Numbered from the stretch's first letter, positions 27,341 through 52,288 are shown. The stretch: DNA of 64,000 nucleotides from a virus (IMGVR_UViG_3300028585_000003:3302-67301), one strand, 5' to 3'. Made by a program: numbers and translations. Notes: generated by a model not told the origin, from the sequence alone.

Positions 27341-27370
27341 ATTGTATGCGCTCAAAATGTGGCGGGTCAA
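27341..27370 (-). promoter_or_regulatory. sigma70 promoter with TGAGCGCA spacer motif
   Basis: TTGACC-18-TACAAT. Confidence 0.7.
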
Positions 27371-27391
27371 GCGGAATATGCAGCAGGCAAC

Positions 27392-27415
27392 AAAAAGCCC
27401 GGTCGGTGCCGGGCT
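27392..27415 (-). terminator. Intrinsic terminator
   Basis: AGCCCGG stem plus T5 on minus strand. Confidence 0.65.
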
Positions 27416-27426
27416 GGTGCTGCTGG

Positions 27427-27966
27427 TCAGCGACGCCGTGACTTGGCGCGCAGCTTGTCCAGCTCGTACTGTTCGCGCTCATCGGGGCGAAGCGGCGCTT
27501 CCAGGGCCGCCAGCACTGCCGCGCGCAGCGCTTCCATGCCGCCACGGTCGCGCATGTGTCGGAACCGCTCGAACTGGGCGCGCAGCGGCACCATGGAGCC
27601 CTCGATTTCGCTGTTTTTCTTGTCGTCCGCTTCCATCTTGCGCGCCCGGTCGGCCACCTCGGCTGCGCCGTCGAGCGCTTCCCATGCAATCTGGTCGCCA
27701 CCGTCCGGCCAGCGGCGCACGAACTTGAGGTTCGCGGAGAGCCCGGCCGCCTGCGTTTCGCTGAAACTCGCGCCGGAATAGACGCCGCCGACGCTGCGGT
27801 GCGCCTTGCGGTCGAACATGAACAGGCGCTCGTCCATCAGCGTGCCGTCGTCGGCAATGGCGCGCACGGAAAAGGCGAGCTTTCCGTTGATAAGGTGGCG
27901 GCGGCCGCAGTAAACGAATTCGCGCGGCGTCAGGACTGGTTCGGTGGGTGGTGGTGTCGTGGTCAT
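27427..27966 (-). CDS. Hypothetical protein
   Basis: 179-aa ORF with coiled-coil C-terminus. Confidence 0.55.
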   Translation of the reverse strand: MTTTPPPTEPVLTPREFVYCGRRHLINGKLAFSVRAIADDGTLMDERLFMFDRKAHRSVGGVYSGASFSETQAAGLSANLKFVRRWPDGGDQIAWEALDGAAEVADRARKMEADDKKNSEIEGSMVPLRAQFERFRHMRDRGGMEALRAAVLAALEAPLRPDEREQYELDKLRAKSRRR

Positions 27967-27981
27967 GGTGATGAGGTGAGG

Positions 27982-28575
27982 TTAAACAGGGACCGGCGAG
28001 GGGCGCGCGCCCTTGATGCGCAGGATGGTTTGCCGGGACACGCGCATATCGCGCGCGATTTCGGAGATTCCCACGCCCGCATCCAGCAGGCCGTGGACAA
28101 GCTGCTTGTCGTTGTCGCCCAGCGCTGGCGGGCGGCCGAACTTCTTTCCCTCTTTCTTCGCGCGGGCAAGGCCAGCATTGGTGCGCTCGATGAGTAAGTC
28201 CCGCTCGAACTCGGCCACGGCCGCGATAACGCCCATGGTCATCTTGCCTGCGGCGCTGGTCAGGTCTATGTTGCCCAAGGCGAGGCAGGACACGCGCACG
28301 CCGGATGCTTCCAGGCGCTCGACGGTGGCGCGCAAGTCCATCGCGTTGCGGCCCAGGCGGTCCAGCTTAGTCACCACAAGCACGTCATCGCGCTCCAGGC
28401 GGTCGAGCAGCTTGACGAAGCCGGGGCGCTCGTTCGCGGCGCTGGACCCGCTGATAGTCTCGGTGATGATGCGGCGCTCGTCCAGGGCGAAGCCTGCGGC
28501 CTTGATTTCGCCGATCTGGTTGTCGGTGGTCTGGTCGCCGGTCGATACGCGGCAGTAGGCAAATACTCGGCTCAT
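27982..28575 (-). CDS. Small serine recombinase (PinR/PinQ-like resolvase/invertase)
   Basis: YCRVST catalytic Ser, [25 protein letters not shown]-terminal HTH. Confidence 0.92.
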
Positions 28576-28862
28576 TTTTCAACAATCTCCCATATGTCCA
28601 GCCAAGCGCTATCCCAGGCTTCGACTTTACGAATTAGCCCTTTCTTGCCGAGATAGCGGAAGGCCGCGACGGCTTGATCGAGCGTGTAAATTTTGCGCTC
28701 CGTGCCCGCTGGCACGGCCAGCAGGTTCATCCACGAAAGAGCCATCACTGGCGTAATGCGAGGAATCCCCATGCCATCGGTGCGCGTGATGACGAATGCC
28801 GCGCTGCCGACGGCGGTTTGCCGACGGACGCGCTTGTTGGCGAACTGTTGCAGGGCGCTCAT
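28572..28862 (-). CDS. Hypothetical protein
   Basis: Overlap coupling. Confidence 0.5.
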
Positions 28863-29869
28863 CCCTTGATCGCCTTGGTCACGTTGACCGGGCTCATCCT
28901 GACCTCGGCAGGCCCGAGATACAGCTTGTAGCTGCCTTCGCCCAGCGCCTTGTCCGTCTCAGTGTACGAGCGCGTCAACAGGCTCAAGCCGGTGCTGCTA
29001 ATCGTCAGTTCGGCCACATGCTCGGGCTGGTTGGCGCTTCCCTCGGCAGGCTGGGCGGCGATCAGCGCTTTTGCGCGCAATACGATGCAATCGGGCTTGT
29101 GGTCTTCGTGGTCGTCCAGATCGGCGTCGCAGCCGTAGCAAAACAAGCGCTCTTGATTGTCCGTGCCGGTGTAGTGGTCGGCTACGGCTTGCACGAACTC
29201 ACGCACGTTCTCTGGCAGGGCCGGGGCGGCTTGCCCTGCACGGTAGACTTGCATGGCGTTCTGCTCCTTCGCGCTGTCGAACAGCGGGCAGAAGCTGGCG
29301 TGCGTGATGCTGTTGCCGTGGCACTTGTGGCACTTCGGATGCCCTGCGCTGGCAGGTGCAGGGGTGGCGTTGATGTTCACATTTCCAGATTTGTTGAGCA
29401 CAACGTCGCTTGACGTGCATTCGTTGAACACATCGCCACCAGCAGCACGGCGGGATGCGGCGAGGCCGACTGCGACCGCTTCATCGTACCCAGCGCCGAC
29501 TCGGGATGCTTCGTGGAATGCCTGTTTGAACTTCGCCACATCTGCAATATCCGCTACCTGCGGGGATGGGGTGGCGAGAGCCTTCAATTCGTCGGCGCGT
29601 GCCAGGACCAGATCGGCGGCAGCGTGGCGCGCGTCGCGGTGGCCGGTAGCGTAGCCGGTTGCATAGTCATCGCCCGGTTCTGCCTGATAGACGGGAGGCA
29701 GGTTCATAATCGCAGTCGGGATCGTGAGCACGTCAGCAGCAGGGATGGTAGGCTTCACGCCCTGCATCGCATCTGCCACTTCGATAGCTGCATTGCGCCC
29801 GATAGGCTGGCCGTGGTCGCACAGTACGGCTGCGCCTGCGGTGATCTGGTCGTTCGTGAGGGTGGTCAT
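28859..29869 (-). CDS. Mosaic hypothetical phage protein with Cys/His clusters
   Basis: CHKCHG-HASFC and CYGC-HKPDC. Confidence 0.55.
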   Translation of the reverse strand: MTTLTNDQITAGAAVLCDHGQPIGRNAAIEVADAMQGVKPTIPAADVLTIPTAIMNLPPVYQAEPGDDYATGYATGHRDARHAAADLVLARADELKALATPSPQVADIADVAKFKQAFHEASRVGAGYDEAVAVGLAASRRAAGGDVFNECTSSDVVLNKSGNVNINATPAPASAGHPKCHKCHGNSITHASFCPLFDSAKEQNAMQVYRAGQAAPALPENVREFVQAVADHYTGTDNQERLFCYGCDADLDDHEDHKPDCIVLRAKALIAAQPAEGSANQPEHVAELTISSTGLSLLTRSYTETDKALGEGSYKLYLGPAEVRMSPVNVTKAIKG

Positions 29870-29880
29870 GGGCATTCCGG

Positions 29881-30015
29881 TCAAAAGTAAGTTTCGTCAG
29901 GCTGGGCGGCGTGCTCCCATGGAGCGCCCAGCCCGTCGTGGGTGTCGAACTCGGGGCCGGTGGTGTTCGGCCATTCGAGCGCGCCGCCACTAGCAGGGGT
30001 AGGGGTGGTGCTCAT
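29881..30015 (-). CDS. 44-aa acidic peptide ending PDETYF
   Basis: ATG overlapping upstream TGA; not in ORF track. Confidence 0.4.
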   Translation of the reverse strand: MSTTPTPASGGALEWPNTTGPEFDTHDGLGAPWEHAAQPDETYF

Positions 30016-30239
30016 GCGTCGGCCGCTTTCTCGACAACGGCGCGCTCTTTCCCGGTGATCTGGAAGTACAGCGCCATGGTGTGGTCGCCGAAGCGAATGC
30101 GCCAGCGCAGTTGCTCATCGTCGCGGTGCGTCTCGTACTCCACCGTGCCGCGCTGGCCCGATGCCGTGGTCATGGTGTCGCCTTCGTGGATCGTGGTCCC
30201 GGCGTAGTCCGGCCAGGGTGCGGTGCGTGCAGTTTTCAT
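30012..30239 (-). CDS. Small SH3/YopX-like hypothetical protein
   Basis: DYAGTTIHEGD...GTVEY. Confidence 0.45.
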   Translation of the reverse strand: MKTARTAPWPDYAGTTIHEGDTMTTASGQRGTVEYETHRDDEQLRWRIRFGDHTMALYFQITGKERAVVEKAADA

Positions 30240-30547
30240 GTGGGTTCTCCGGTGGTGGTGAATCCGAAAGCAGCGTCAAGCCCTTCATCCTGGCCGACGG
30301 CGTAGTGTTTGGTGCTGCGGCCGCAGAATGGGCAATAGCTGGCCGAAATGGTCGTCATCTTGCCCTTGGTGAAGCCCTTGGCCGGGCTGGTGACGCGGAA
30401 GGGGATATTTACCGCCATGCGCAGGCCCAGCTCGGGCGTCAACTGGATGGCGGTGGCGGTGCATTCCACCTTGGCACCTTCTCCAGCGCGGTCACGCACG
30501 AACACGGCAAGGCGTTTTTCGGTGTCGGCGATGCAGGTGCAGTTCAT
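30236..30547 (-). CDS. Small Zn-binding phage protein
   Basis: MNCTC...SYCPFCG. Confidence 0.6.
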   Translation of the reverse strand: MNCTCIADTEKRLAVFVRDRAGEGAKVECTATAIQLTPELGLRMAVNIPFRVTSPAKGFTKGKMTTISASYCPFCGRSTKHYAVGQDEGLDAAFGFTTTGEPT

Positions 30548-31299
30548 GCCGCGCTCCCGTCGTCGTCCAGGCCCAGCTCGTCCGCAATGTCGCTCAGGAG
30601 GCAGCGGCCATCGCAATCAGTGCCGTCATAGTGGGCTTCTTCGTAGAGCAGGTTCAGCGCATACCCGGCTTTGGCCTGCTGTTGCAGTAGATCGTATGCG
30701 GCCTTCAACAGAATGGCCTTGCGGTCCTTCTGTTCGCTTGCTTCGGTGACTGGCAGCCCGGCCGCCTTGTCTATGGCAGCATCCCATTCCTCGGCGGTCG
30801 GCTCGCGAGACTGGCCCACGTCGGCGGGCAGCGCCACGGCCATCGCGTCGAGGAATTTCTGATCCGAGATCAGCATGGCGTCGCGCCATGCGATGTAGCG
30901 CGCGGCGTTCTGTTCGGCCGGGTGGACGCGGTGCCAGAGGGCGTCCGCTTCGCGCTTGAAGCGCAGCGCCATTTCCCGGTCGGTTTCGCCGGTCGCGTTC
31001 GCTGGCGCTGGTCGGGCGTCACGGACGGCGCGCAGCACCTTTTCCGCGTCCGGGTTGAGCCAGTCGCGGCGCTCGGGCAGCGCGCCCAGCAGCTCGCCCA
31101 GCGCCCAGTGCAGCAGGTTTTGCACGGCGCTCGCCGGGGCGGGCTTCGAGGCGGCGGCGATCAGTTTCGCCAGCTCGACCAGCTCCCCGGAACTGTAGTT
31201 CTGCGCGTTCGGCACGCCCATGCGGTCCAGCATGGCGCGCGCCGCCTGTTCTGCGCTGTATTTGATGGCATTCACTGCCGTTGCGGTCTGGTTGCTCAT
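30544..31299 (-). CDS. Mosaic hypothetical phage protein
   Basis: 251-aa ORF; overlap coupling. Confidence 0.55.
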   Translation of the reverse strand: MSNQTATAVNAIKYSAEQAARAMLDRMGVPNAQNYSSGELVELAKLIAAASKPAPASAVQNLLHWALGELLGALPERRDWLNPDAEKVLRAVRDARPAPANATGETDREMALRFKREADALWHRVHPAEQNAARYIAWRDAMLISDQKFLDAMAVALPADVGQSREPTAEEWDAAIDKAAGLPVTEASEQKDRKAILLKAAYDLLQQQAKAGYALNLLYEEAHYDGTDCDGRCLLSDIADELGLDDDGSAA

Positions 31300-31808
31300 G
31301 CTTTTTCTCCAGTAGGGGTGATGGCTTCAACGGGAATGAAGATTTCATGCACGCGCGGGTGTTCGAGGAAGGTCGGTTTAACGATGACGCGCATACCCTT
31401 GCCCATGGTGCCGAACAGTCCGTATGCCTTCCAGTTGCATACCTTGCCGTCACGCTCGATGCCGGTGTTGCACGCGCTGTAGTTGGTCGAGTGGCCGCCG
31501 CAGGCCGGGCAAACGTACTTGCCGGAAGGGTAGGCGGCTGCGAACGCTTCGAGCGATTCCAGCACCGTTACGTCATCCAGGCGCGGGAAATTGGCGTCCT
31601 GGTAGTAGTTCGGCGCGGTCACGTTGCGCTTGGCTTCGATGGCGGCCAGCACCTCGTCCGGGGTGAGGCCCAGCACGGCCGAGTATTCCGGCAGCACGCG
31701 GTCGAGCAGGGCTTGCACCTCGCCGATTCGCTGTTCGGCCAGCCGGACGGAATTGTTCTTGTGGATCGACGCGGCGATTTTCTGGATGATTTCTACGGTA
31801 GTGGTCAT
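31296..31808 (-). CDS. Phage protein with Zn-ribbon (CPACG...CNWKAYGLF)
   Basis: YYQDANFP, CPACGG motifs. Confidence 0.6.
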   Translation of the reverse strand: MTTTVEIIQKIAASIHKNNSVRLAEQRIGEVQALLDRVLPEYSAVLGLTPDEVLAAIEAKRNVTAPNYYQDANFPRLDDVTVLESLEAFAAAYPSGKYVCPACGGHSTNYSACNTGIERDGKVCNWKAYGLFGTMGKGMRVIVKPTFLEHPRVHEIFIPVEAITPTGEKA

Positions 31809-31861
31809 TTTGTGTCCGAAATGGGTATCCGAATAATACAGGGTGTCCGAAATAAAGCAAG

Positions 31862-32032
31862 CTAGGTTTTGAGCAGCCTTGCAGCGCGTGTCCGCAAGCG
31901 GTCGTTTTTGGTTTGCATGTCGAGGCGCACTTGTCGCATGCGTGCGCGGAGTCGCTTCAAGGCTGCCAGCCTTTCCGGCTGGACTTTGCCCCAGCCTTCG
32001 CGGCTCTTGGTTCGGCGTTGTCGTGCATTCAT
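31862..32032 (-). CDS. Small basic helical protein
   Basis: GGAGA RBS; first gene after promoter 32104. Confidence 0.5.
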   Translation of the reverse strand: MNARQRRTKSREGWGKVQPERLAALKRLRARMRQVRLDMQTKNDRLRTRAARLLKT

Positions 32033-32074
32033 GGCGTTCTCCGTTGCCGCGCACAGTGCGCTGCATTGATACGA

Positions 32075-32104
32075 ATTATATGCGCTCATAAAGTGATTCG
32101 TCAA
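32075..32104 (-). promoter_or_regulatory. sigma70 promoter with TGAGCGCA spacer motif
   Basis: TTGACG-18-TATAAT. Confidence 0.75.
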
Positions 32105-32110
32105 TAGGTG

Positions 32111-32135
32111 AAAAAAAGCCCGCGCATGGCGGGCT
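32111..32135 (-). terminator. Intrinsic terminator
   Basis: AGCCCGC stem plus T7 on minus strand. Confidence 0.7.
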
Positions 32136-32152
32136 GGTAGCGGGGCGCTGGC

Positions 32153-32491
32153 TTATTTCTTGGCGCTGTCCTGGAGGATTTTTCTCGCGTCCGGCAGCTG
32201 ACGGGACAGCGCGCGCCATGCGCTGTGCTCGCCGAGCAGCTTGTGCTTGTTCTCCGGGGCGGCCTGCGCCAGTTCGGCGTCGAGCTTGCCCATGCGCCCG
32301 AGGGCGATACCGGCCATGAGGACCGCGTTATCGTGCTCGACCTCGACCATTACGGCCCCGGTCTTGTCGGCGCGCCCAGCCGCCTGTTCGGCGTCGATCC
32401 GCTTCATGGTTTCGCCGCCCGGTATTTCGACGCGCAGCAGCTCGGCCATCTTCTTGCTGATTTTCAGGTTCGATGGGGTGGTTGTGCTCAT
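32153..32491 (-). CDS. Hypothetical protein
   Basis: AAGGAA RBS; 112 aa. Confidence 0.6.
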   Translation of the reverse strand: MSTTTPSNLKISKKMAELLRVEIPGGETMKRIDAEQAAGRADKTGAVMVEVEHDNAVLMAGIALGRMGKLDAELAQAAPENKHKLLGEHSAWRALSRQLPDARKILQDSAKK

Positions 32492-32507
32492 TGGTTCCTT
32501 GTAGTGG

Positions 32508-32744
32508 TTATTGCGGGGTGGTGGTAATAGGTGCCTTCGCGTAAAGAGCCTTCGCTTCGGCGATGGTATCGGTCAGTGCAACATGGCGGCCCAGCTCGTC
32601 GGTTGGGCGTTCGATAAGGCTGATGATGCGCGCCAGCGTGCCGCTCACGTCGCCGTAGGCGGGGAGGCCGACAGAGGTAAGGATCAGGTCGGCGCGCTCG
32701 ATGGCGTGGTCTTGAGGGTCCGTGGTGCCCGAGTCTTGTTTCAT
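32508..32744 (-). CDS. Hypothetical protein
   Basis: GGAGA RBS; 78 aa. Confidence 0.55.
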   Translation of the reverse strand: MKQDSGTTDPQDHAIERADLILTSVGLPAYGDVSGTLARIISLIERPTDELGRHVALTDTIAEAKALYAKAPITTTPQ

Positions 32745-32784
32745 GCGGTTCTCCAGGTGTGCCCGGCGCGCGCCGGGCGGTTGG

Positions 32785-33015
32785 TTACGCGGCGGGTTCG
32801 TCGCTGGTGATCCAGATGGTTTTGCCCTTGTAGCGCGCCAGCTCGGGCAGGTTCGCGCGGTAGCACAGGTCTTGATATGCGCTCTTGGTCAGGAAGATGA
32901 TGACAGAGCCCTTTGCGTTGGCCTCGGCCACGGCCTGGTTGGCGATGGCGGTCCCGTTCAGGTCGGTGGCGGCAGTGAGGGCGGCGGCGATCATGGCAGC
33001 GATATTAGTTTTCAT
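32785..33015 (-). CDS. Hypothetical protein
   Basis: MKTNIAAM... Confidence 0.5.
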   Translation of the reverse strand: MKTNIAAMIAAALTAATDLNGTAIANQAVAEANAKGSVIIFLTKSAYQDLCYRANLPELARYKGKTIWITSDEPAA

Positions 33016-33142
33016 AGTCACCTGCGATCAAGCGCGCCGCCGTGAAGAACAGCGAATTGATGATGGCGGCCGGGCCGTGCTTGGCGGCCAGCTCGTTACG
33101 GTCAGCGACAGTTTTGGTCAGGATCAGGGCGGTGATGCTCAT
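33005..33142 (-). CDS. 45-aa hypothetical protein
   Basis: GGAG RBS; first gene after promoter 33206; not in ORF track. Confidence 0.45.
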   Translation of the reverse strand: MSITALILTKTVADRNELAAKHGPAAIINSLFFTAARLIAGDYEN

Positions 33143-33176
33143 GCGGCAGGGCTCCGTGCTGGGTTATAGTGATTCG

Positions 33177-33206
33177 ATTGTATGCGCTCAAAAATATATT
33201 CGTCAA
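33177..33206 (-). promoter_or_regulatory. sigma70 promoter with TGAGCGCA spacer motif
   Basis: TTGACG-18-TACAAT. Confidence 0.75.
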
Positions 33207-33244
33207 CCTATAAATATATCTTTGTGCCTATATTTTTCGACAGC

Positions 33245-33287
33245 TAGGAAAACTCGGCCAGGGCGTCCAGGCGGCACCTTTTACAGT
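33245..33287 (+). promoter_or_regulatory. Candidate late promoter TAGGAAAA-N29-TACAGT
   Basis: Same geometry as four other sites ahead of virion operons. Confidence 0.6.
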
Positions 33288-33390
33288 GGCTTCACCAACG
33301 GCGGAACTCCGTGGGCACCGAGCGCAAAGCCGTGCAGAACATCGCACGGTAGGAAGGCGGATTTGCGCACCCTTCATGGTTATGGAGAAC

Positions 33391-33439
33391 TCGACAATAT
33401 TTTTTCTATTGTCGATTTCCCTTTAAAATCAACGGGTTA
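33391..33439. promoter_or_regulatory. Inverted repeat TCGACAATA-N7-TATTGTCGA and IHF consensus AATCAACGGGTTA next to dif-like site
   Basis: IR 33391-33415; WATCAANNNNTTR match 33427-33439. Confidence 0.5.
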
Positions 33440-33465
33440 GGTGCATAATCTATCTTATGTTAAAT
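33438..33465 (+). other. dif-like XerC/XerD recombination site
   Basis: TAGGTGCATAA-TCTATC-TTATGTTAAAT: XerD arm identical to canonical dif, XerC arm keeps GCATAA, 6-bp centre. Confidence 0.85.
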
Positions 33466-33486
33466 CACACATCGAAAGAATTCACA

Positions 33487-33723: not shown

Positions 33724-33738
33724 GAAAGAATCGACAAC

Positions 33739-34098: not shown

Positions 34099-34125
34099 TC
34101 CTACCTCAACCGAAAAGGAGTGTTT

Positions 34126-34419: not shown

Positions 34420-34449
34420 CCATGCGAAAGTAGAGAGAGCCCGAAAAGT

Positions 34450-34478
34450 AAAAAGCCCCGATGCGTTCGGGGCTTTTT
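34450..34478. terminator. Bidirectional intrinsic terminator
   Basis: A5-GCCCCG-loop-CGGGGC-T5 between convergent genes. Confidence 0.8.
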
Positions 34479-34480
34479 CG

Positions 34481-34849
34481 TTAGAACAGGGACATTTGCG
34501 GCGGTGATGCCGCTGGGGCTTGCGGAGCGGCCGCAGGCGGCGATTTCTCGGGCTTCGCGCCGGATTGGTAGCGCTCATGCAGTCGAAGCACCGTAGCGGC
34601 CATCCCGGCAATCCATGGGTCTTTCGGCAGGTGCATCCCGGTCGAGCCGTCCCAGTCGAAAAACTCCCGGTCGTAGAACGGCACGCGCTCCGGGTGCTGC
34701 TGCTGTAGTGTCACCAGCTCGTCGGCCCAGCGCTGCCAAGTGGCGTCGCTGACAATCGGGTTATCGAGCTGGTAGTACAGGTAGGAGTGGACGGCGAGCT
34801 GCTGGCGGCGCTGCCTGATACGCGCGGCGATACTCTGCGCGGCCGCCAT
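34481..34849 (-). CDS. Stand-alone NAD-dependent ligase domain Ia-like protein
   Basis: HSYLYYQLDNPIVSDATWQRW...QQHPE aligns with LigA [21 protein letters not shown]...TKHPE; no adenylation domain. Confidence 0.75.
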   Translation of the reverse strand: MAAAQSIAARIRQRRQQLAVHSYLYYQLDNPIVSDATWQRWADELVTLQQQHPERVPFYDREFFDWDGSTGMHLPKDPWIAGMAATVLRLHERYQSGAKPEKSPPAAAPQAPAASPPQMSLF

Positions 34850-35037
34850 CAGCCCACCCTTCCAGTGAAAACAACAGGGTTCGTCTCGCGCTCGGCCGCG
34901 TGCATCCAGAACAACTCATGTTCGAGGGCGTGGACGCGGTTCTTGAGCGTCGCGTTTTCCTTGGCGCTGGCGGCCAGCTCGCGCGCCAGCTCGACGGGCG
35001 TGCGGTACTTGAGCAGGTATTCGGCGAGCGTCATCAT
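34849..35037 (-). CDS. Small coiled-coil protein
   Basis: Overlap coupling. Confidence 0.5.
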   Translation of the reverse strand: MMTLAEYLLKYRTPVELARELAASAKENATLKNRVHALEHELFWMHAAERETNPVVFTGRVG

Positions 35038-35336
35038 TTCTGTGCCTCCGCCGCTTCCAGCTCGGCCAGCAGCTCGCGGCCCTTGCGTGTGATGTAGCGG
35101 CCGTCCAAATCTTGCGCGGCCAGCTCGCGCTTTTCCAGCGCGCGGGTGAACCGGCCAGCGGCAAGGGCGATGCCCTGCGGCGATGGGTGGCGCTTGCGCC
35201 CCTCTTTCTCTCCCGCGAACAAGGCATAGCCCAGGCCGGACAGGTAGGGGTAAGGGCCGTTGTCGCGCAGCAGCTCCAACGCCTTGCGTTCGTACTCGGA
35301 CAGGCTCTTGTCGGCCTGGAGTGATGCGTTACTCAT
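35034..35336 (-). CDS. Small wHTH-like protein
   Basis: FTRALEKRELA...YITRKGRELL. Confidence 0.5.
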   Translation of the reverse strand: MSNASLQADKSLSEYERKALELLRDNGPYPYLSGLGYALFAGEKEGRKRHPSPQGIALAAGRFTRALEKRELAAQDLDGRYITRKGRELLAELEAAEAQK

Positions 35337-35386
35337 GTGTCAGTTATCCGTCAATTTTTGTCAGTAAAATGTAAGTTTTCCGCAAG

Positions 35387-35860
35387 TTACCGGCAACGCG
35401 CGAGCGCTGGGTGGTCCGGGTCTACGCCGTTCGCCTCGGCCATCGCACGGTAACTGTCGTGCAGCTCATGCCCGCCGTCGGTGATCGAGTCGAAGTCCCG
35501 TTCGCCCTTGATGTAAAACGCCCGGCTCGCCCAGTTGTGATCTGCGCCTCGCATCAGGAACCCGGCGCACGTCGCGGGCTTCTCTTGGCCGGATTCGTGG
35601 CAGGCAAATTCGTGCTCGGACCCATCGTAGGCGGTGCGCGCCGACGCGACGAAAGCACCAGCAGGAAATGCGCCGGTCTGATCTACGCGCCAGGGGCACC
35701 CGCCGCACGGCTCGCGGCGATGCAGACTGCCGCCGCCCTCGACAGAAACAACTTGGTGGTTCGCGTCCACCGTTCGCACATTGGTGATGACCGCGCGCTT
35801 ACGCGGCTTCTTCGCTGTCTCGCACAGGACAGCCTTGCCTTGCTCATCCGATCTGCACAT
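35387..35860 (-). CDS. Cys/His-rich DUF6283-like protein
   Basis: PCGGCPWRVD...FACHES...CAGFL. Confidence 0.6.
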   Translation of the reverse strand: MCRSDEQGKAVLCETAKKPRKRAVITNVRTVDANHQVVSVEGGGSLHRREPCGGCPWRVDQTGAFPAGAFVASARTAYDGSEHEFACHESGQEKPATCAGFLMRGADHNWASRAFYIKGERDFDSITDGGHELHDSYRAMAEANGVDPDHPALARCR

Positions 35861-36336
35861 TATTCGCCTCGCGTGTCGAAGAACTCGACGTTCTTGTGGT
35901 TGCTGATCCCGTCCAGAACGCAGCGTGTGATGAAGTAGAAATTGCGGCCCCGGTCGTAAATGACTTCCTCGGTGTCCGTGCCGGAATTCAGGATCGTCTT
36001 GGCGCGCTGGGAGTACGGCTTGTCGCCGATGGTGAAGCGGAGCTTGTCGCCCGGCCATACCTGTCCTGCCTTGGTGACGGGTCGCCACTGGCCCACGTCG
36101 AGGAACTGCACCATAGTAGCGTGCGGCACGATCACGCTGCCGTCGGGCAGCTCGACCACGGCGCACAGGCCATGCACTACTTCGGTCGGCCCTTCGGTGC
36201 TGTCGGTGCCGAGCGCCAGCAGCATCCCGCGCGCGTGCAGCACCTCGCGCTCGTAAGTGTGAAGGCCGCCGCCCTCTTTCGGCGTGGCGACGATGTGAAA
36301 GACGCGCACCGGGCGCGGAAGCTGGCGCGGGGTCAT
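35860..36336 (-). CDS. Hypothetical protein
   Basis: TAATG overlap coupling. Confidence 0.55.
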   Translation of the reverse strand: MTPRQLPRPVRVFHIVATPKEGGGLHTYEREVLHARGMLLALGTDSTEGPTEVVHGLCAVVELPDGSVIVPHATMVQFLDVGQWRPVTKAGQVWPGDKLRFTIGDKPYSQRAKTILNSGTDTEEVIYDRGRNFYFITRCVLDGISNHKNVEFFDTRGE

Positions 36337-36650
36337 TGCGAATCCTGGCTGCGGCGAGCCCACCAGACGGCCGGGCCGCCCTCGGTGTCGTCAATGGCGA
36401 GCATGAACCAGCCTTCGCCATCTGGTGGCGCTGGGTTCCAGGTAGCAAAGCGGCCCGTTTCCTCGTATTCGGCGTGCGCCGGGCAGTCCTCATCCTCGGT
36501 GTCCAGAAAGCTGTAGAGCATTTTCAGCCCTTGTTGCTTGGCCCATTCGTGGTACTTGTGCGCCTCTCCCTCATCGAACTGGGGCATATCGGGGTGGTTC
36601 CATACGCCGTTGGCGTCGCGCTGCACAGTGGCGGCTTGAATCAGTTTCAT
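36333..36650 (-). CDS. Acidic hypothetical phage protein
   Basis: WNPAPPDGEGWFMLAIDDTEGGP. Confidence 0.6.
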   Translation of the reverse strand: MKLIQAATVQRDANGVWNHPDMPQFDEGEAHKYHEWAKQQGLKMLYSFLDTEDEDCPAHAEYEETGRFATWNPAPPDGEGWFMLAIDDTEGGPAVWWARRSQDSQ

Positions 36651-36659
36651 GCTGTGTCC

Positions 36660-37250
36660 TTATACGGGGATTTTCGGAGATTCTATGCGCAGCCAGTGGC
36701 CGCCGTACACGTCGCACATGATGGCTTGGCCGGTGTACGACTGGTTCATGGGCACGAAGCATTTTTTCGCCGTGCCGCTGTACAGCAGATCAAGTACGGT
36801 CGGGGCGCTGTCGGCGTCGCCGCTCCAATGCCAGTATTCGCCCTGTTCGGTCGGTGGCGTCGTCGTCCAGGCGTGCGCTGCGCGCGGCGCGCGAGGCGTG
36901 TACGGGCCGTAGGGGCGTCCGTGCTGGCGCGCCACCTCGGAAACCTTGGCGCGGTCGCGCTCCCAATAGATGACGTTGCCGCTGGCCGCCAGCACCGCCC
37001 AGGCTTCGCCCTCGAACGGCTCGGGCGGGATCGGCGTCACGCACTCCAGGTCGTAGCAGCCGCTCACGCCGTCGATCCAGACCACAGCGGTGTGGCCGCC
37101 CATGACTTGCGCCAGGCTGCGCGTGGTGGTGATGAAGGGCTTGTCTTTGCCGTCCAGCTTGACGGCAACGCGAGCGCCCGGCTCATAGTCGAAGTTGAAG
37201 GCATCGCACGCCGCTTGCAGCGCAGCCACGGATGGCGCTTTGTGGTTCAT
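36660..37250 (-). CDS. Mosaic hypothetical phage protein
   Basis: TTRSLAQVMGGHTAVVWIDGVSGCY domain plus PPTEQGEYW domain. Confidence 0.55.
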   Translation of the reverse strand: MNHKAPSVAALQAACDAFNFDYEPGARVAVKLDGKDKPFITTTRSLAQVMGGHTAVVWIDGVSGCYDLECVTPIPPEPFEGEAWAVLAASGNVIYWERDRAKVSEVARQHGRPYGPYTPRAPRAAHAWTTTPPTEQGEYWHWSGDADSAPTVLDLLYSGTAKKCFVPMNQSYTGQAIMCDVYGGHWLRIESPKIPV

Positions 37251-37810
37251 GGTGCTGGTTCCTCTTGTGGCCCTTTGGCCTCTTGGTGGTGGTCGAAATA
37301 TGCTTGCAGCCGGGTCAGGTCGGCGCGCATGCGCAGCAGGTCCGCGCGCCATACCAGCGCCATCTGGTCAGGGACCGGCGCGGGCTGTTGCAGGGCGCAC
37401 GCGGCGCGGATTCGTTCGTAGGATGCGGCCTTGGCCTCGGGGCCAGGGTTTGCGAACGGGGCCAGCCCTTCCGGCTTGGTGAACAGCGCGACGTGCTGCT
37501 TTCCCCGAGCGATCCACCCGTATTTGATGAGGTAGCTGCGGGTGTCGCAGTAAGCGCCGTTTGGGTGCCGGGCCAGTGGGATTTTGTCGGCGCGTACCGG
37601 GTCGCGCGCCCAGCGCTCGAACAGGTACGTTTCATCGCGCGGCACCTGGGCGGCCAGCGGCAGCTCGAACGTCATGGCCTGTTCGATCAGCAGCGCGCCG
37701 CTGTCAATGGTGCCGGTGATGGCGAACGGGTGGCCGGTGCCGAGGTCGGCGCGCACCTCGAAGCCTGCGCCCCGGAATGCGTCAATCACGTCTTGAACGA
37801 TGGTGGTCAT
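37247..37810 (-). CDS. Hypothetical protein
   Basis: 187-aa ORF, overlap coupling. Confidence 0.55.
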   Translation of the reverse strand: MTTIVQDVIDAFRGAGFEVRADLGTGHPFAITGTIDSGALLIEQAMTFELPLAAQVPRDETYLFERWARDPVRADKIPLARHPNGAYCDTRSYLIKYGWIARGKQHVALFTKPEGLAPFANPGPEAKAASYERIRAACALQQPAPVPDQMALVWRADLLRMRADLTRLQAYFDHHQEAKGPQEEPAP

Positions 37811-37854
37811 GGTGGTGCTTTGGTGGATGCGCCCGCCGTGGCGGGCATGGGTGA

Positions 37855-38082
37855 TTACTTATCGCGACGGAAGCGGCGGTGGGTGAACTGCGCAGCAATG
37901 CGGACCATCGTGCGCGCCAGATCAGGCGGCATGTGCTCGCCCAGGACGACGCGCTGCCATTTGATCGCGACATAGAGGCCGTGGCGATGCTGGCGAACGT
38001 CATACTTCTGGTCATGCTTTTGGCTCAGGCGCTTCATGGTTGCAAGGCGTTTCGCCTGGACCTTCTCTTGAGTCGCTTTCAT
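37855..38082 (-). CDS. Small basic protein
   Basis: GGAGA RBS; first gene after promoter 38161. Confidence 0.55.
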   Translation of the reverse strand: MKATQEKVQAKRLATMKRLSQKHDQKYDVRQHRHGLYVAIKWQRVVLGEHMPPDLARTMVRIAAQFTHRRFRRDK

Positions 38083-38131
38083 CGGATTCTCCGTTGTTCG
38101 CCGCGCCCACTGCGCCGCGCTAATGAATCGT

Positions 38132-38161
38132 ATTGTATGCGCTCATAAAGTGATCCGTCAA
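38132..38161 (-). promoter_or_regulatory. sigma70 promoter with TGAGCGCA spacer motif
   Basis: TTGACG-18-TACAAT. Confidence 0.75.
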
Positions 38162-40479: not shown

Positions 40480-40513
40480 TGCAGTTCCTATATTTCTACT
40501 GGTAAATATAGGT

Positions 40514-40542
40514 ATGCTAATTGAAATATGGGTTAGCGGCAA
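40514..40542 (-). promoter_or_regulatory. sigma70 promoter overlapped by CI-type operator (ATAGGTATGCTAAT, 40508-40521)
   Basis: TTGCCG-17-TAGCAT. Confidence 0.55.
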
Positions 40543-40564
40543 TAGTGAAGCCTATAAATGGGCG

Positions 40565-45866: not shown

Positions 45867-45869
45867 CGG

Positions 45870-45912
45870 TAGGAAAACGACGGGATAGCCTGCCCAGGGC
45901 GCGCCTCAAAAT
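45870..45912 (+). promoter_or_regulatory. Candidate late promoter TAGGAAAA-N29-CAAAAT
   Basis: Upstream of second tail fibre gene. Confidence 0.6.
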
Positions 45913-45936
45913 AGGGCCACCTATTTTGAGGCCCAT

Positions 45937-47238: not shown

Positions 47239-47567
47239 TGGAACTCAAAAACGCCCCATTTTGCCCACTCATCAAAAAGGACTGCAAGCAGCTCGGCTGT
47301 AGCTGGTTCACGCAGGTGCGCGGCCGCGATCCGCAAAGCGGCCGTGACATTGACGAATGGGGCTGCGCGATCACCTGGCTTCCGGTCCTGCTGATCGCGA
47401 ACGCCAACGAGGCCCGCCAGGGCGCGGCGGCCACCGAATCATTCCGCAACGCCGTCATGGGCGCGCACCAAGCGGCGCAGCCCCCGAGCGCCCCGCCGAC
47501 CGTCGGCGCGTCCATGGCCCAGGTGATCGAAACCGTTGCAACTCCACCCCAAATCAAACAGGAATAA
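47238..47567 (+). CDS. Cys-rich fibre-associated phage protein
   Basis: CPLIKKDC-CSWF-WGCAITWLP-ESFRN. Confidence 0.6.
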   Translation: MELKNAPFCPLIKKDCKQLGCSWFTQVRGRDPQSGRDIDEWGCAITWLPVLLIANANEARQGAAATESFRNAVMGAHQAAQPPSAPPTVGASMAQVIETVATPPQIKQE

Positions 47568-47570
47568 ACC

Positions 47571-48215
47571 ATGAAACTGACCATCATTCCAGACGATAAG
47601 ACTGTCCTCATCAATGGCGAGCGCTTCGAGGTCGATTGCGCGGCCCTGGTCGCGCAAGGCATCCATGCGGTGCAGTGGTACGGCTCGCGCGGGCACATCG
47701 AATTCAAGGACGCGGACGACGGCAGCAAGCCCGAAAACGAGCAGATCGAGAGCATCGAGCGCTTCGAGCCGGTCATCCAGGCGTGGCGCGATGCCAAGGC
47801 CGCAACGGCGCAGGAAGACGTGCCCGAGCCGGACACGCTGGAGCAGGCCCAGCACAAGGCGCTGCGCGCTGTAAATGCCCGCTTCGCCCTGGAGCTGGCC
47901 GCCGTGCGCGCCAACTGCCCGGCCGACGAAGTGCAGTCGTGGGCGCGGCAGGAGGCCGAGGCGCGCGCCTATGCTGCCGACAGCGCCACCTCGACGCCGC
48001 TGCTGTCGGCCATGAGTGCCGCGCGTGGCGTGGAGCTGGGCGAGCTGGCCGCGAAGGTCATCGCGAAGTCCGATCAATACGTCCAGGCGAGCGGCCGCAT
48101 CATCGGCATCCGGCAGGCGTGCGAAGCGGCCATTGCAGCGGCGCAGACGCCAGAGGCGGCAAGCGCCGTCGTGTGGCCTGAGCCGGTGCTGCCTGCTGCC
48201 CAGGCGGGCGGCTGA
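47571..48215 (+). CDS. Tail fibre assembly/chaperone protein
   Basis: HAVQWYG N-domain; EVQSWARQEAEARAY C-domain. Confidence 0.65.
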   Translation: MKLTIIPDDKTVLINGERFEVDCAALVAQGIHAVQWYGSRGHIEFKDADDGSKPENEQIESIERFEPVIQAWRDAKAATAQEDVPEPDTLEQAQHKALRAVNARFALELAAVRANCPADEVQSWARQEAEARAYAADSATSTPLLSAMSAARGVELGELAAKVIAKSDQYVQASGRIIGIRQACEAAIAAAQTPEAASAVVWPEPVLPAAQAGG

Positions 48216-48216
48216 C

Positions 48217-48531
48217 GTGTCGCCCATCGCTGCCGCGAAGTTCATTGCGGCCGTGCGCAAGTTCGCCGTGCAGACCCCGAGCTGGGGCGCGGCGATCCGC
48301 TACCACACCAGCCCGGACGAGCGTTTCGACCTGACGCTGATCGCGTTTCGCGTCTACGGCAACCGCTCGGAATTCCTGGCGATCTTCGCGGCGGCCGGGC
48401 TCGACACGCTGGAGCAGGAGCTGGACGAGCGCCTGCTGGTGCTGCCCACGGCTGCACAGTTGCAGCTCATCAAACTGGAAACCGGATACCTGACCGATGC
48501 AGAAAAACGCGCGTATAACGCACTCAATTAG
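48217..48531 (+). CDS. Tail X/LysM-like baseplate protein
   Basis: DLTLIAFRVYG...LVLPT; GTG start. Confidence 0.5.
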   Translation: MSPIAAAKFIAAVRKFAVQTPSWGAAIRYHTSPDERFDLTLIAFRVYGNRSEFLAIFAAAGLDTLEQELDERLLVLPTAAQLQLIKLETGYLTDAEKRAYNALN

Positions 48532-49531
48532 CGCCGCAACCGCCCGGCTTAGCTCGGCGCGGCGCGAGGCGCAGGAAGCCGCGGAATTCGATCTGGCGCG
48601 GCGGCAGGGTGCCACCACGATCCTGCGCCCGGAAGAAATCTCCGGCGACTATGATGCTGGCCGCGCACTGAAAACGACTCTGGGCGGCGTGGTGCGCAAC
48701 CTGACCCTGGACGATATGCGCGCCTTCCAGGCGAACGTCCAGATACTCAAAAAGAAATTCACAGGCGGCATCAAGGCCCAGGACGTGATCGACCTCGCGC
48801 TGGAGTCCGACAAGACCCGCGCGAACAAGCAGATCAACATGGCCGTGCCCGCCTCGATCCTGGGCGGCAAGGTGCATTTCATCACCAACGCCGGGCCGGA
48901 TTCGGACGTGACGCGGCACCACGTACACGTCGAGTTCCTGGACTTCAACGCCGTGGTGGGCGCATCGCCGAACGAGCCGAAGAAGCTGGGCAAGTTGCTG
49001 GCGGCCGGGCGGCTGCTGTTCGACTGCGATTGCGGCCGTCACACGTTCTGGTATCGCTACATGGCGACCGTCGGCCGGTACAACTACGGCCGCGCGGAAA
49101 CCGGCTACCCGAAGATCAGGAACCCGAAGCTGGCGGGCGTGGCGTGCAAGCACGTCCTGCGCACCATGCACGTCGTCCTGAAAGATTCCAACGTCCACCT
49201 CAAGCTGGCCCAGTCGGTGCTCAAGGCGCGCGACGTGCTCGACGGCCGCAAGGTGAAAGCCGAGCGCGTCAAGGTGGCCGAGCTGCGCGAAATGGCGGCC
49301 GCCCAGGGGAATAAGCGCGCCAGCAGCACCAACCTGCAAACCAGTGCGGAGAAGAAGCGCAAGGCAGCCGTCGCCAAGGCCCGGCGCGATATGAAGAAGG
49401 CAGCTGTCGAGCGGGCCGACCCTGCGGCGAACCTGCGGCGCGTCGAGCAGCACGCAGGCGAGCTGCTGCGCATGGGTGCGATCACCCAGGCGATCTATGA
49501 GCAAATCATCAAAGGAGCGCAACCGCAATGA
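48497..49531 (+). CDS. P1-like protein with SWIM-type Zn finger
   Basis: FDCDCGRH...GVACKHV. Confidence 0.6.
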   Translation: MQKNARITHSISAATARLSSARREAQEAAEFDLARRQGATTILRPEEISGDYDAGRALKTTLGGVVRNLTLDDMRAFQANVQILKKKFTGGIKAQDVIDLALESDKTRANKQINMAVPASILGGKVHFITNAGPDSDVTRHHVHVEFLDFNAVVGASPNEPKKLGKLLAAGRLLFDCDCGRHTFWYRYMATVGRYNYGRAETGYPKIRNPKLAGVACKHVLRTMHVVLKDSNVHLKLAQSVLKARDVLDGRKVKAERVKVAELREMAAAQGNKRASSTNLQTSAEKKRKAAVAKARRDMKKAAVERADPAANLRRVEQHAGELLRMGAITQAIYEQIIKGAQPQ

Positions 49532-50025
49532 TTAACAACGTGCCAGTGGCGATCACCAAGGCGGCCAGCGCCGTCACGCGCAAGCACCCGAATTCGATGG
49601 ATTGCGTGGTGTATCGCAAGGTGCTGACCGACCCGGACGACGGGCAGAATATGGGCGGCCTGTCCACCTTGGGCGGCATGGGCGTGCTCAAGGGCGAGGA
49701 CGAAGCCGATTTCGAGTACCAGAAGGTAGGGATGGGCCGGATTTTGATAACGGCCCGTTTCGAGGGCGGGGAAATCTCAGACCGGGGAGACAGCATCGTG
49801 CCGGATCAGCCAATGCAGGAGGCGCAGATCGTCAGCGCCGCCAACGTGCCGGACTTCCAGGTGCAAAAGGGCGATCTGGTGGGGGTGATGCCGGGCGGCG
49901 GGGTGCTGATCGGGTTCGAGATTATCGGGCAGACCGGCAACATCGCGATCTACCCGTATGCGTCAAAGTGGGTTATCGCGCCGCGTGATGAGCTGCACGA
50001 CCTTGCGCCTTGGAAGGAAGGCTAG
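49528..50025 (+). CDS. Head-tail connector-like protein (P1-type)
   Basis: DCVVYRK...GGMGVL; position. Confidence 0.5.
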   Translation: MINNVPVAITKAASAVTRKHPNSMDCVVYRKVLTDPDDGQNMGGLSTLGGMGVLKGEDEADFEYQKVGMGRILITARFEGGEISDRGDSIVPDQPMQEAQIVSAANVPDFQVQKGDLVGVMPGGGVLIGFEIIGQTGNIAIYPYASKWVIAPRDELHDLAPWKEG

Positions 50026-50408
50026 AACAGCGAGAATCGCGGGTTGCGCGTGAAGTACATCGCGCCCGCTTCGAGCGAAGGGTGGGGGCAAACCTGCGCC
50101 TTGTAGCGCTCGGGCACGACCAGCACCACGTCCGGACCATGGTACAGAATGTCGCCGTTCTCCAGGTCATAGCCGTGGTCGGCGAACAGCTTGCGCAGCG
50201 GCGCGGCTTCCCGCGACATTTGTTCCATCAGCTTGTCGAACGACGCCCGCACCCCCGCGAAATCGGGCGCTTGCGCTTGCGGTGGGGCGGCGCTGACGGT
50301 ACTCGCGAACAATGCGCTTGCAATCGGCGCTGAGACTTCGAGCGGCGGCATAGCGATGTTGTCGAGCGGGGTGAGTTCGAGTACGTCAAGCAGCTTGAGG
50401 GGCGTCAT
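50022..50408 (-). CDS. Hypothetical protein
   Basis: Last gene of leftward accessory operon. Confidence 0.5.
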   Translation of the reverse strand: MTPLKLLDVLELTPLDNIAMPPLEVSAPIASALFASTVSAAPPQAQAPDFAGVRASFDKLMEQMSREAAPLRKLFADHGYDLENGDILYHGPDVVLVVPERYKAQVCPHPSLEAGAMYFTRNPRFSLF

Positions 50409-50410
50409 GG

Positions 50411-50950
50411 CTAGGCCGCTTTCCGCTTGGCCTGGGGCTTTTGCTGGTTCGCGTAGGCGACCAGCGCCAGCGTCAGCGCATCGCGCACTGCGCCGCGTTC
50501 GGCGCTGCCATTCGTCATCTTGTCGAGCGCTTCGGCCGCCTCCTTTGGAATCCAGCAGGTCAGGCGGCGCTCTCCACGCTCACGCTTCGCAGTGTCCGAC
50601 TCGCCGCGCTTCTCCCGGTCGTATGTTCTGCGGCCGTCACGGTCTTTTGGAACCTTTGGCTCCCCCAGTTGGCGCGGCGCAGGTATGCGCTGCGGCAAAG
50701 GCGCGTAATCGTCGGAATCGAGCGAGGTGGCCGCGAACGCCAGTCCTGGCTGGGCCAGCGCAACCTCGCATGCTTTGCGGTTGCCGGTAACAGTCCAGTA
50801 CGTTATCAGGTGCCGCACGCTGATGACGATGCCGAAGTTTTCCAGGGCGGCCACGGCCGTGCGCTGCGAAGTCGCCGCCACGATAACGGCAACCTGCTTG
50901 CCGTTGACCATGCTCGCGCCGCTGTAGACCTTCATTTCACCTATTCTCAT
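50411..50950 (-). CDS. Hypothetical protein with C-terminal RHH-like segment
   Basis: RLTCWIPKEAAEALDKM...RDALTLAL. Confidence 0.55.
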   Translation of the reverse strand: MRIGEMKVYSGASMVNGKQVAVIVAATSQRTAVAALENFGIVISVRHLITYWTVTGNRKACEVALAQPGLAFAATSLDSDDYAPLPQRIPAPRQLGEPKVPKDRDGRRTYDREKRGESDTAKRERGERRLTCWIPKEAAEALDKMTNGSAERGAVRDALTLALVAYANQQKPQAKRKAA

Positions 50951-50974
50951 GCTCTGCTATTCCTTGTTTTCTTG

Positions 50975-51364
50975 TTACGTTCTCATCGCGTCGAGAACGG
51001 CCGGGCCAGGAATCGGCGTCAGATCGTCCTCGCTGTATTCTGCTGCTTCCCATACGACGTTCACAATCGCCCGCTTATCCTCTTGGTGCCCAGCGATGTA
51101 CCCGAGGTAGCCCTCTTTGGTATAAACCTGCTGGAAGCGCTCAAACCGGGCTTCCTGGGGCGTTTCCTCGGTGGGCTGGCCTGCCGGTTTGAATTGCGTG
51201 CCGAATTTTGCCAGGAGCGCGGCGCGCTGGCGCTCGCGGATTTCCGCTGCTGCGCGCCCGAGCAGGGCAAGCAATTCGTCCGGGTCGCTATCCGGTCGAT
51301 AAGTGGCCGTGTCGAGAATCGCCTTGATGGCGTCGAAGTCGGCCGCCGTCTGGTGTAGGGACAT
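50975..51364 (-). CDS. Hypothetical protein
   Basis: GGAG RBS. Confidence 0.55.
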   Translation of the reverse strand: MSLHQTAADFDAIKAILDTATYRPDSDPDELLALLGRAAAEIRERQRAALLAKFGTQFKPAGQPTEETPQEARFERFQQVYTKEGYLGYIAGHQEDKRAIVNVVWEAAEYSEDDLTPIPGPAVLDAMRT

Positions 51365-51373
51365 TCAGCGCTC

Positions 51374-51661
51374 CTAATCCGGGTCGCGGCCAACGAGCTG
51401 CGCCAGTTCGGGCGGCATGCCGCGCGCCTGCATCCGGTCAGCAATTTCGCTGCGCTGATTGCGCCAGAGCATGAACGACTCGGTTTCGACCAGCTGCGGC
51501 GCGGGCACATACCCGGCCGGTTCGTACAGGTTTTCCCAGTCCTCGCCCGCCTTGAATTTCTCGATGGCCTCGGCCTCGGTGACGTTCAGGTACACGTAGT
51601 CGGTGTTTTTGTCCGGCGAAAAAATTACGGCCGGGTAGCGCTTCGGCTCTTGCGTGCTCAT
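51374..51661 (-). CDS. Hypothetical protein
   Basis: GGAGA RBS. Confidence 0.55.
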   Translation of the reverse strand: MSTQEPKRYPAVIFSPDKNTDYVYLNVTEAEAIEKFKAGEDWENLYEPAGYVPAPQLVETESFMLWRNQRSEIADRMQARGMPPELAQLVGRDPD

Positions 51662-51679
51662 GGTGTTCTCCGTGGTGGG

Positions 51680-52234
51680 TTAGAAGCCGTATTTCTCGGC
51701 GCAGATAGGGCCGATGCCGCGTTCGATGCTTTCCGGGTCCGTCAGCTCGCGGCCGCAGCACGCGCATTGGCCGGTTTCGCGGCCGTAGGCGACGGCGGCC
51801 GCCAGTGGATCGGCGCACAGGGCGACAATCTCGGCCTGCTTTCCCGCGTCGCAGTCGCGCGCCGGGGTGAAAGTGCCGTCGGCGATCTTGCCCAGGTATT
51901 CGTCGCTGCTGGTGACGTAGATCGCGCCCTTGTTGCGGCCAGTGGCCGGTGCCAGCTTGAGCACGAAACCGGCGAGGCGCATTTTCGGACGCTTCAAGCC
52001 GCTTTCGATGGCGCTGGCGAACGCCTCTTGCATCTTGGCGACGCTGCCAACCTCGATAGCTTCGATGGGTGCGGCAGCCGGGCGGTTGAGCTGGCGCGTA
52101 ACGGCGGCAACTTGCTTTTCGGTCAGGTTGCCGGTGCGGAGAAGCTGCTGGTCGAGCGAGTGCGCGAAGTCATTGGTGCCCGCGTTTGCGATGATCCACT
52201 TGATTTCCGGCGCGTTCGATTTGATTTGCAGCAT
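51680..52234 (-). CDS. DUF6011-like Zn-finger protein
   Basis: CACCGRELTDPESIERGIGPICA. Confidence 0.7.
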   Translation of the reverse strand: MLQIKSNAPEIKWIIANAGTNDFAHSLDQQLLRTGNLTEKQVAAVTRQLNRPAAAPIEAIEVGSVAKMQEAFASAIESGLKRPKMRLAGFVLKLAPATGRNKGAIYVTSSDEYLGKIADGTFTPARDCDAGKQAEIVALCADPLAAAVAYGRETGQCACCGRELTDPESIERGIGPICAEKYGF

Positions 52235-52259
52235 AGCAGCTCCCCTTGTTAATGAACCG

Positions 52260-52288
52260 ATTTTATGCGCTCATAACTTGTGAGTCAA
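52260..52288 (-). promoter_or_regulatory. sigma70 promoter with TGAGCGCA spacer motif
   Basis: TTGACT-17-TAAAAT. Confidence 0.75.

Follow-up and report, generated by a model that had tools for sequence, protein, structure and literature searches.

What is the role of a short invariant sequence found against the -10 hexamer of several strong promoters dispersed over one viral genome, and does it tie the operons behind them into a single regulon? The stretch of DNA analyzed here, referred to as the window, comprises 64,000 nucleotides (bases 3,302-67,301) of the complete 91,370-bp virus genome IMGVR_UViG_3300028585_000003, which has direct terminal repeats and 63% G+C. A previous sequence-only reading of the window had reported five minus-strand sigma-70 promoters with a common element, and all five were present where it had placed them. 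Every one has the form TTGAC-N11 (N10 at the promoter P52k)-TGAGCGCA-TA[C/T/A]AAT; the octamer TGAGCGCA is called the block below, and the promoters that carry it class A. The form TATGAGCGCATA was found at P32k, P38k, P52k and a sixth copy outside the window, and TTTGAGCGCATA at P27k and P33k. The spacing of 17/18 given previously is correct for the spacer behind a 6-bp -35 hexamer (18 bp in four promoters and 17 bp in one) and incorrect when measured from TTGAC. From the sequence comparisons presented here, the invariant block is most likely the docking site for one regulator of exchangeable accessory-gene cassettes.

The bare octamer was not enriched (8 seen compared to 4.7 expected), and three of its matches in the window were coding. 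The composite TTGAC-N12-GAGCGCATAnAAT had 4 exact matches compared to 0.15 expected, and none of 100 shuffles reached 4. When the whole 91-kb genome was scanned for TTGAC-N17-19-TAnAAT with the spacer sequence unconstrained, six sites were found and the block was present in 6/6; therefore, the genome has no strong consensus promoter without the block. The full-genome scan that had been proposed with the sequence-only reading thus yielded one promoter more than the five of the window. Many dispersed sites in the promoters of small operons are a feature of the P1 C1 regulon, and here there were six sites in 91 kb, each within a promoter.

The genome is a P1-like phage-plasmid of Burkholderiales because it has P1-type genes, has homologues in Burkholderia, Paraburkholderia and Telluria, and is syntenic with the 88-kb plasmid pBVIE05 of Burkholderia vietnamiensis G4. 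Its baseplate protein is distantly related to BplA of phage P1, the Rb1 counterpart of its 2,285-aa protein occupies the darB position of P1, and it also encodes a portal protein and a Sit-like transglycosylase, together with a lambda-type CI repressor and Cro, an RdgC/RecT recombination arm, a replication initiator and a terminase. Homologues of one phage gene were found on 85-98 kb contigs of the three genera. No close relative was found among GenBank phages; the nearest named phage, Xanthomonas phage Rb1, has structural and early genes in common with this genome and lacks both the class A promoters and the late promoter class described below. A pattern scan of IMG/VR revealed the same promoter in six related contigs, four of which were examined whole, and protein identity among the motif-bearing genomes was 35-85%. 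A literature search on the motif and on pBVIE05 gave nothing relevant, the only string matches being lacO variants.

In an unbiased scan of five genomes (TTGAC-N17-19-TAnAnT), 33 of 33 sites had the block or a one- or two-base variant of it. Further sites were found in pBVIE05 (four, near 7,904, 60,471, 73,636 and 74,578) and in the metagenome contigs L153 and L154 (two each), bringing the total to 46 or more sites over 10 records. Between genomes, the column identity of 41 aligned sites was 0.2-0.3 in the flanks, which is background, and at least 0.9 in TGAGCGCA and in the T, A, A and T of the -10. The same sharp footprint was observed in a seven-genome alignment of the orthologous promoter ahead of the DUF6011 gene, and the information content of the block was equal to that of the -35 and of the -10. 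Because the core is kept above 0.9 and the flanks at 0.2-0.3 between genomes of such low protein identity, these alignments indicate that the block is under selection and is not the product of mere promoter duplication. The view that the promoters form one dispersed set with a common cis element was thus borne out, and between-genome conservation rules out the alternative that duplication alone explains the motif.

Within single genomes, whole promoter-plus-leader units of 45-70 bp are near-identical (ACGTGAGCGCATACAGT five times in genome G004 and AATTGTGAGCGCGTACAAT six times in genome G005). Most copies of a genome have private variants, for example GAGCGCGTACAAT in G005 and GAGCGCATACAGT in G004, and the copies therefore evolve in concert. 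Such units would be expected if the promoter-terminator cassettes were mainly recombination 'sockets' for accessory-gene swaps, similar to PeSLs, with their identity kept by gene conversion. The hypervariable cargo (genes conserved in at least four of five relatives were 6/33 in class A operons versus 49/88 elsewhere, p = 2e-4) and the observation that class A promoters and terminators are the longest inverted repeats of the genome agree with this explanation. It is nevertheless quite unlikely to account for the block, since conservation between genomes covers only 14 bp with sharp edges, too short for homologous exchange, and conversion cannot account for identical bases at orthologous promoters in ten diverged records. 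A socket process probably runs alongside a binding function and not instead of it. In the PeSL cassettes of T4-type phages, a standard early promoter and a stem-loop flank hypervariable small genes. The class A cassettes resemble them in having a conserved promoter and a hairpin beside hypervariable genes and in being homogenized within genomes. They differ in that between-genome conservation is confined to 14 bp, and we know of no report of an extra invariant block in the spacer of PeSLs.

On a modest balance of probability, the block is a predicted operator over the -10 for a clade-conserved repressor, and the accessory cassettes form a regulon independent of CI. The 14-16 bp sequence (TT)R-TGAGCGCA-TAcAaT would be a protein operator in the core of every strong sigma-70 promoter of the clade. 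Host RNA polymerase alone would read class A promoters well through the A-tract, TTGAC, the 17-18 bp spacer and TAcAAT. No activator would be needed because the -35 and -10 are consensus-like, with 10-11 of 12 box matches to the sigma-70 consensus at four window sites. One clade-conserved, phage-encoded DNA-binding protein would sit on the block and the overlapping -10, where it would block sigma region 2 and turn all six accessory-gene operons off together. The block would thereby define a regulon distinct from the CI-controlled genes and the TAGGAAAAC late promoters.

The anatomy of the sites is as follows. The block spans -20 to -13 and abuts the -10 in 41/41 aligned sites, so any protein bound at the block must cover the -10. 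The spacer between -35 and -10 is 18 bp in 27 of these sites and 17 bp in 14. Positions T1, A2, A4 and T6 of the -10 are invariant across sites; the third position is C in 30/37, which is not the sigma-70 optimum but pairs with a G of TTGTG. The -35 is preceded by an A-rich tract, and TTCAT, weakly conserved, lies near the expected start. The block and its surroundings form an imperfect 16-bp dyad, TTGTGAGC|GCATACAA, with the best center at GAGC|GCAT and 5.8/10 complementary pairs on average, and the G005 sites form a 32-bp near-palindrome (14/16 pairs).

The sequence-only reading had proposed a second repressor distinct from CI. The part of this claim that stands is the distinct element; we infer that a repressor is the ligand, and likewise the identity of that protein and the timing of its action. 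CI itself is encoded in all motif-bearing genomes (43-77% identity), and a prophage must silence its strong lytic-side promoters somehow, which would be explained if the block were an extra operator of phage CI. This is extremely improbable, as the CI-Cro intergenic regions of five genomes have conserved AT-rich motifs of their own (TTATACACnATATC, GAAATAAAG, GATGCTTATAAT and GTTGCTTTATGG) which are unrelated to the block in sequence, and the block is absent from all five regions.

An XRE protein, a ParB/Noc-like protein, CI, Cro, the DUF6011 protein p184 and a few unknown proteins are encoded in every motif-bearing genome, including pBVIE05. Judged from conservation, the XRE protein is our first choice as candidate binder and the ParB/Noc-like protein the second. 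The recognition helix of the former, NSTQLS(Q/L)IESG, is nearly invariant in motif-bearing genomes, is kept in pBVIE05 at 44% overall identity, and differs in Rb1, a phage without the motif. The gene of the latter, absent from Rb1, is the last of the early recombination operon in every relative and has no ParA partner. Its product aligns to Noc and Spo0J and has GEHRW where ParB has the CTP-binding motif GERRW; its helix-turn-helix (HTH) is more variable than the XRE helix and less conserved than the site. Compared to the ~16-bp palindrome of the ParB/KorB type, the dyad at the block is imperfect. Wider searches for relatives with a variant core, in which co-variation with a binder could be seen, returned only clade members with the core unchanged.

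Two other candidates were rejected. The HTH protein at 18933, which the sequence-only reading had listed as 19020, is missing from pBVIE05, a plasmid that has the element. The protein p184 was considered as an autoregulator, because in every genome its gene comes first behind a class A promoter, but nothing suggests that it binds DNA. Its 573 homologues come from phages of many types and frequently have an additional zinc-finger extension at the N terminus, and the C-terminal motif of p184 is CxxCGRxLTDPxSIxRGIGPxC; an AlphaFold2 (AF2) model (predicted local distance difference test, pLDDT, 87) had no fold match in the PDB. No HTH gene was found inside the class A operons.

Several observations weigh against a repressor operator. 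The invariant core is asymmetric, and two of the dyad pairs are mismatched yet show perfect conservation, as is not usual in a site bound by a homodimer. In G004 the flanks have changed in concert, with ACG on the left side and AGT on the right side, and symmetry is not regained. The XRE gene immediately precedes terS, where a late activator is classically encoded, and its product could equally serve the TAGGAAAAC late box. Both the XRE and the ParB-like genes are in CI-controlled early operons, and therefore neither is obviously made in the lysogen. A rather unlikely variant, framed around a binder of another kind, is that the block and -10 constitute a private 14-bp promoter 'address'. Its reader would be a factor specific to the clade, neither a sigma factor nor a repressor of the classic dimeric sort, and the address would mark standardized sockets for the exchange and co-regulation of accessory genes. 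Among the candidates for the factor would be a protein that binds asymmetrically or as a monomer, or a clamp of the ParB/Noc type loaded at the -10.

The fixed register of an invariant, asymmetric core also bears on whether the block acts positively, in the manner of a long 'extended -10' that host RNA polymerase would recognize by itself or with a phage co-factor, thereby defining a private promoter class. The distance of the core to the -10 is fixed in 41/41 sites, the distance from -35 to -10 being 17 or 18 bp, and between genomes TGAGCGCA-TAcAaT is kept better than the -35. The -35 has drifted to TTGCG or TTGCA in the distant relatives pBVIE05, L153 and L154, with GTGAGCGCATAC exact throughout, and in L153 and L154 the -10 has also drifted, to TACTAT or TACACT, with GTGAGCGCATAC unchanged there; this exactness speaks for a repressor operator as well. 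A precedent exists in the Lpa-dependent promoters of P1, which have a box just upstream of the -10. However, this explanation is doubtful, since the -35 and -10 are already near consensus and a helper is unneeded, and the block at -20 to -13 lacks the TG of the known extended -10. No phage sigma factor was found (Sigma70_r2 had 0 matches in the phage), and the XRE protein, the sole candidate tested, has no relative in P1. Lpa-dependent late promoters, of which six were extracted from P1, have a 9-bp -22 box (AAGTGACTT), 4 bp and a -10 with no -35, unlike the class A promoters, which have a consensus -35 and a block touching the -10. The -10 patterns of sigma-32, sigma-28 and RpoS were compared by eye, and the invariant G bases appeared to fit none of them.

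Across 596 Gb of prokaryote genomes, 70 matches to the promoter pattern were found, single and scattered, compared to ~100 by chance (our own rough estimate), and no prophage copies of it appeared in the species representatives scanned. Matches at about chance level mean that the block promoter is not a host motif or host promoter type, which further disfavors a positive element. They also bear on the proposal that the block is bound by a host protein (LexA, a LacI/GalR-type or another Burkholderia regulator), through which the cassettes would be tied to the physiology of the host, as host genomes do not contain the full promoter pattern above the rough chance estimate. The beta-proteobacterial SOS box consensus is CTGT-N8-ACAG, and TGT-N8-ACA(G), which is close to it, is present in G003-G005 and pBVIE05. 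In addition, the sites of G003-G005 fit a LacI/GalR-type palindrome pattern (14-20 bp, central CG). The G005 sites match the symmetric lac operator at 18/20 positions, and the block matches the cre/LacI-family pattern, TGnnAnCGnTnnCA, at 13/14. A host protein is still very unlikely, as the invariant part is the GC-rich center, which LexA does not read, and the outer CTG/CAG bases that LexA reads are variable here. There is also no LacI-type protein in the phage (the LacI HTH, PF00356, had no match).

With a repressor operator retained as the favored explanation, one of the closest known arrangements in logic is the C1 regulon of P1 (NC_005856), also a P1-type phage-plasmid, with BplA, portal and Sit-like transglycosylase common to both. 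Scattered sigma-70 promoters of small operons have one common site overlapping the core promoter in both systems. In contrast, the P1 operator is a 17-bp asymmetric ATTGCTCTAATnnATTn at variable positions relative to the -35 and -10; in class A promoters the site adjoins the -10 without exception, and immunity in this genome is a lambda-type CI/Cro switch. No homologue of P1 C1 or Coi was found by tblastn in six genomes (best E-value > 1), and the P1 operators extracted from NC_005856 (ATTGCTCTAAT type) have no resemblance to TGAGCGCATA. The analogy with P1 C1 drawn previously therefore holds in logic only and does not extend to C1 or Coi homologues, to C1 operators or to Lpa promoters.

In the IncP plasmid RK2, strong promoters throughout the replicon are shut by common operators of KorA and KorB; the KorA site overlaps the -10, and KorB is of the ParB family. 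The class A set is similar in the logic of shared-operator control, and an orphan ParB/Noc-like protein is conserved in this clade, but beyond the ParB fold no homology exists, the two sets of operators have unrelated sequences, and the ParB-like gene here is in the early recombination operon. Aca proteins are small HTH repressors encoded in the operon they control; each locus has a single site, an inverted repeat within the anti-CRISPR promoter. The mechanism proposed here would likewise damp a very strong early promoter through an inverted repeat in the promoter; unlike Aca, six or seven operons have one common site with no HTH gene within them. In the phage-plasmid N15, the ParB-family protein SopB binds four dispersed inverted-repeat centromere sites and can silence nearby promoters (PMC7205306). 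Those sites serve partition with SopA, unlike the situation here, where the ParB-like gene has no ParA.

As read here, the block regulon would join a known kind, the dispersed-operator regulons, as a member of neither the P1 C1 nor the KorA/KorB family. If this is correct, one invariant 14-bp site gates all strong promoters, independently of CI immunity and of the late promoters, and offers a testable handle on how P1-like phage-plasmids of ~90 kb, a poorly known group from Burkholderia and its relatives, control their flexible gene pool. Experiments are feasible because one member of the group, pBVIE05, is carried by a cultured strain, B. vietnamiensis G4. The identity of the binder would tell cargo expressed in the lysogen from an entry program of burst and shut-off, and with it a promoter/operator pair both compact and portable would become available for high-GC hosts.

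Table. Promoters, operons, terminators and regulatory genes considered in this study (window coordinates unless stated otherwise)
Feature	Coordinates	Strand	Remarks
Class A promoter P27k	27341..27370	-	TTGACC, 18-bp spacer with TGAGCGCA at its end (27347-27354), TACAAT
Class A promoter P32k	32075..32104	-	TTGACG, 18-bp spacer containing TATGAGCGCA, TATAAT
Class A promoter P33k	33177..33206	-	TTGACG, 18-bp spacer, TACAAT; back-to-back with TAGGAAAAC box at ~33245-33253 (+)
Class A promoter P38k	38132..38161	-	TTGACG, 18-bp spacer, TACAAT
Class A promoter P52k	52260..52288	-	TTGACT, 17-bp spacer, TAAAAT; orthologous in all relatives, always ahead of DUF6011 gene
Sixth class A promoter	genome 73,127-73,156 (~window 69,826, outside the window)	+	sits behind a terminator
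P27k operon	25482..27295	-	small, mostly genome-specific genes; 88-aa product weakly Zn-ribbon-like (below cut-off), 144-aa product weakly nucleotidyltransferase-like
P32k operon	27427..32066	-	about nine genes, all unknown except Cin/Hin-type DNA invertase (27982-28575)
P33k operon	32153..33142	-	four small unknown genes
P38k operon	34481..38082	-	about eight unknown genes
P52k operon	50022..52234	-	DUF6011 protein p184 (51680-52234) and four small genes; gene content largely conserved, unlike in the other class A operons
Sixth operon		+	three small genes, terminator, then separate late-type promoter ahead of portal gene
Intrinsic terminator	25444..25462	-	ends P27k operon
Intrinsic terminator	27396..27415	-	ends P32k operon; directly upstream of P27k
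Intrinsic terminator	32117..32135	-	ends P33k operon; directly upstream of P32k
XRE/434-like HTH protein, 233 aa	20616..21317	+	candidate binder 1; last gene before terS; counterpart Bcep1808_7702
ParB/Noc-like protein, 309 aa	6293..7222	-	candidate binder 2; in all motif-bearing genomes, absent from Rb1; counterpart Bcep1808_7720
CI-type repressor	11833..12519	-	HTH and CI-like C-terminal domain; own intergenic operators without block
TAGGAAAAC boxes	33245-33253, 45870-45878, 52304-52312	+	also at genome 79,462 and 82,587

Every class A promoter drives a short operon of small genes closed by an intrinsic terminator of the AGCCCGC...GCGGGCTTTTT type (Table). The terminator-promoter cassette layout described previously was confirmed at the 27k and 32k promoters, which have terminators directly upstream, and the sixth promoter also lies behind a terminator. 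An identical 26-nt terminator sequence is present in inverted orientation at window 32113-32138 and, after the sixth operon, at genome 74,121-74,146, and is the longest inverted repeat of the genome. Scans of the cargo genes with PHROGs, Pfam and PADLOC gave nothing diagnostic and no defense or anti-defense family; the Cin-type invertase and the DUF6011 protein were the only products recognized. The anti-host/anti-defense role assigned to the operons by the sequence-only reading thus found no support in these scans, and an anti-defense role of the cargo is a guess.

The Cin/Hin-type invertase in the P32k operon is conserved in the IMG/VR relatives, with no gix/cix-like site and no obvious invertible segment nearby. 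The promoters were considered as crossover sites of this enzyme and rejected, as neither gix-like sites nor further long inverted repeats were found; the opposite orientation of one class A promoter is conserved synteny.

The leaders of four of the six class A operons contain GGCGCAC-N1-3-GTGCGCGGC approximately 12-32 nt past the start (27296-27335, 32034-32069 and 38083-38126 on the minus strand, and L046 6160-6206). Similar GC hairpins followed by GGAGAA lie ahead of internal genes. Folding of the leader hairpins was no better than that of shuffled sequence (z -0.7 to -1.75).

The late promoter class lies ahead of the structural operons and consists of TAGGAAAAC followed ~29 bp later by an ACAATG-like -10. 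It was found in all relatives and pBVIE05, and the box is often back-to-back with a class A -35, with 17-40 bp between them. Another AT-rich control region was found at 40480-40560 on the minus strand, ahead of the 40,480-to-38,195 operon, with the palindrome CCTATATTT-N8-AAATATAGG. Related ATATAGG motifs lie upstream of P33k and left of cI (11,600-11,740), and together with the palindrome region they may represent another operator set.

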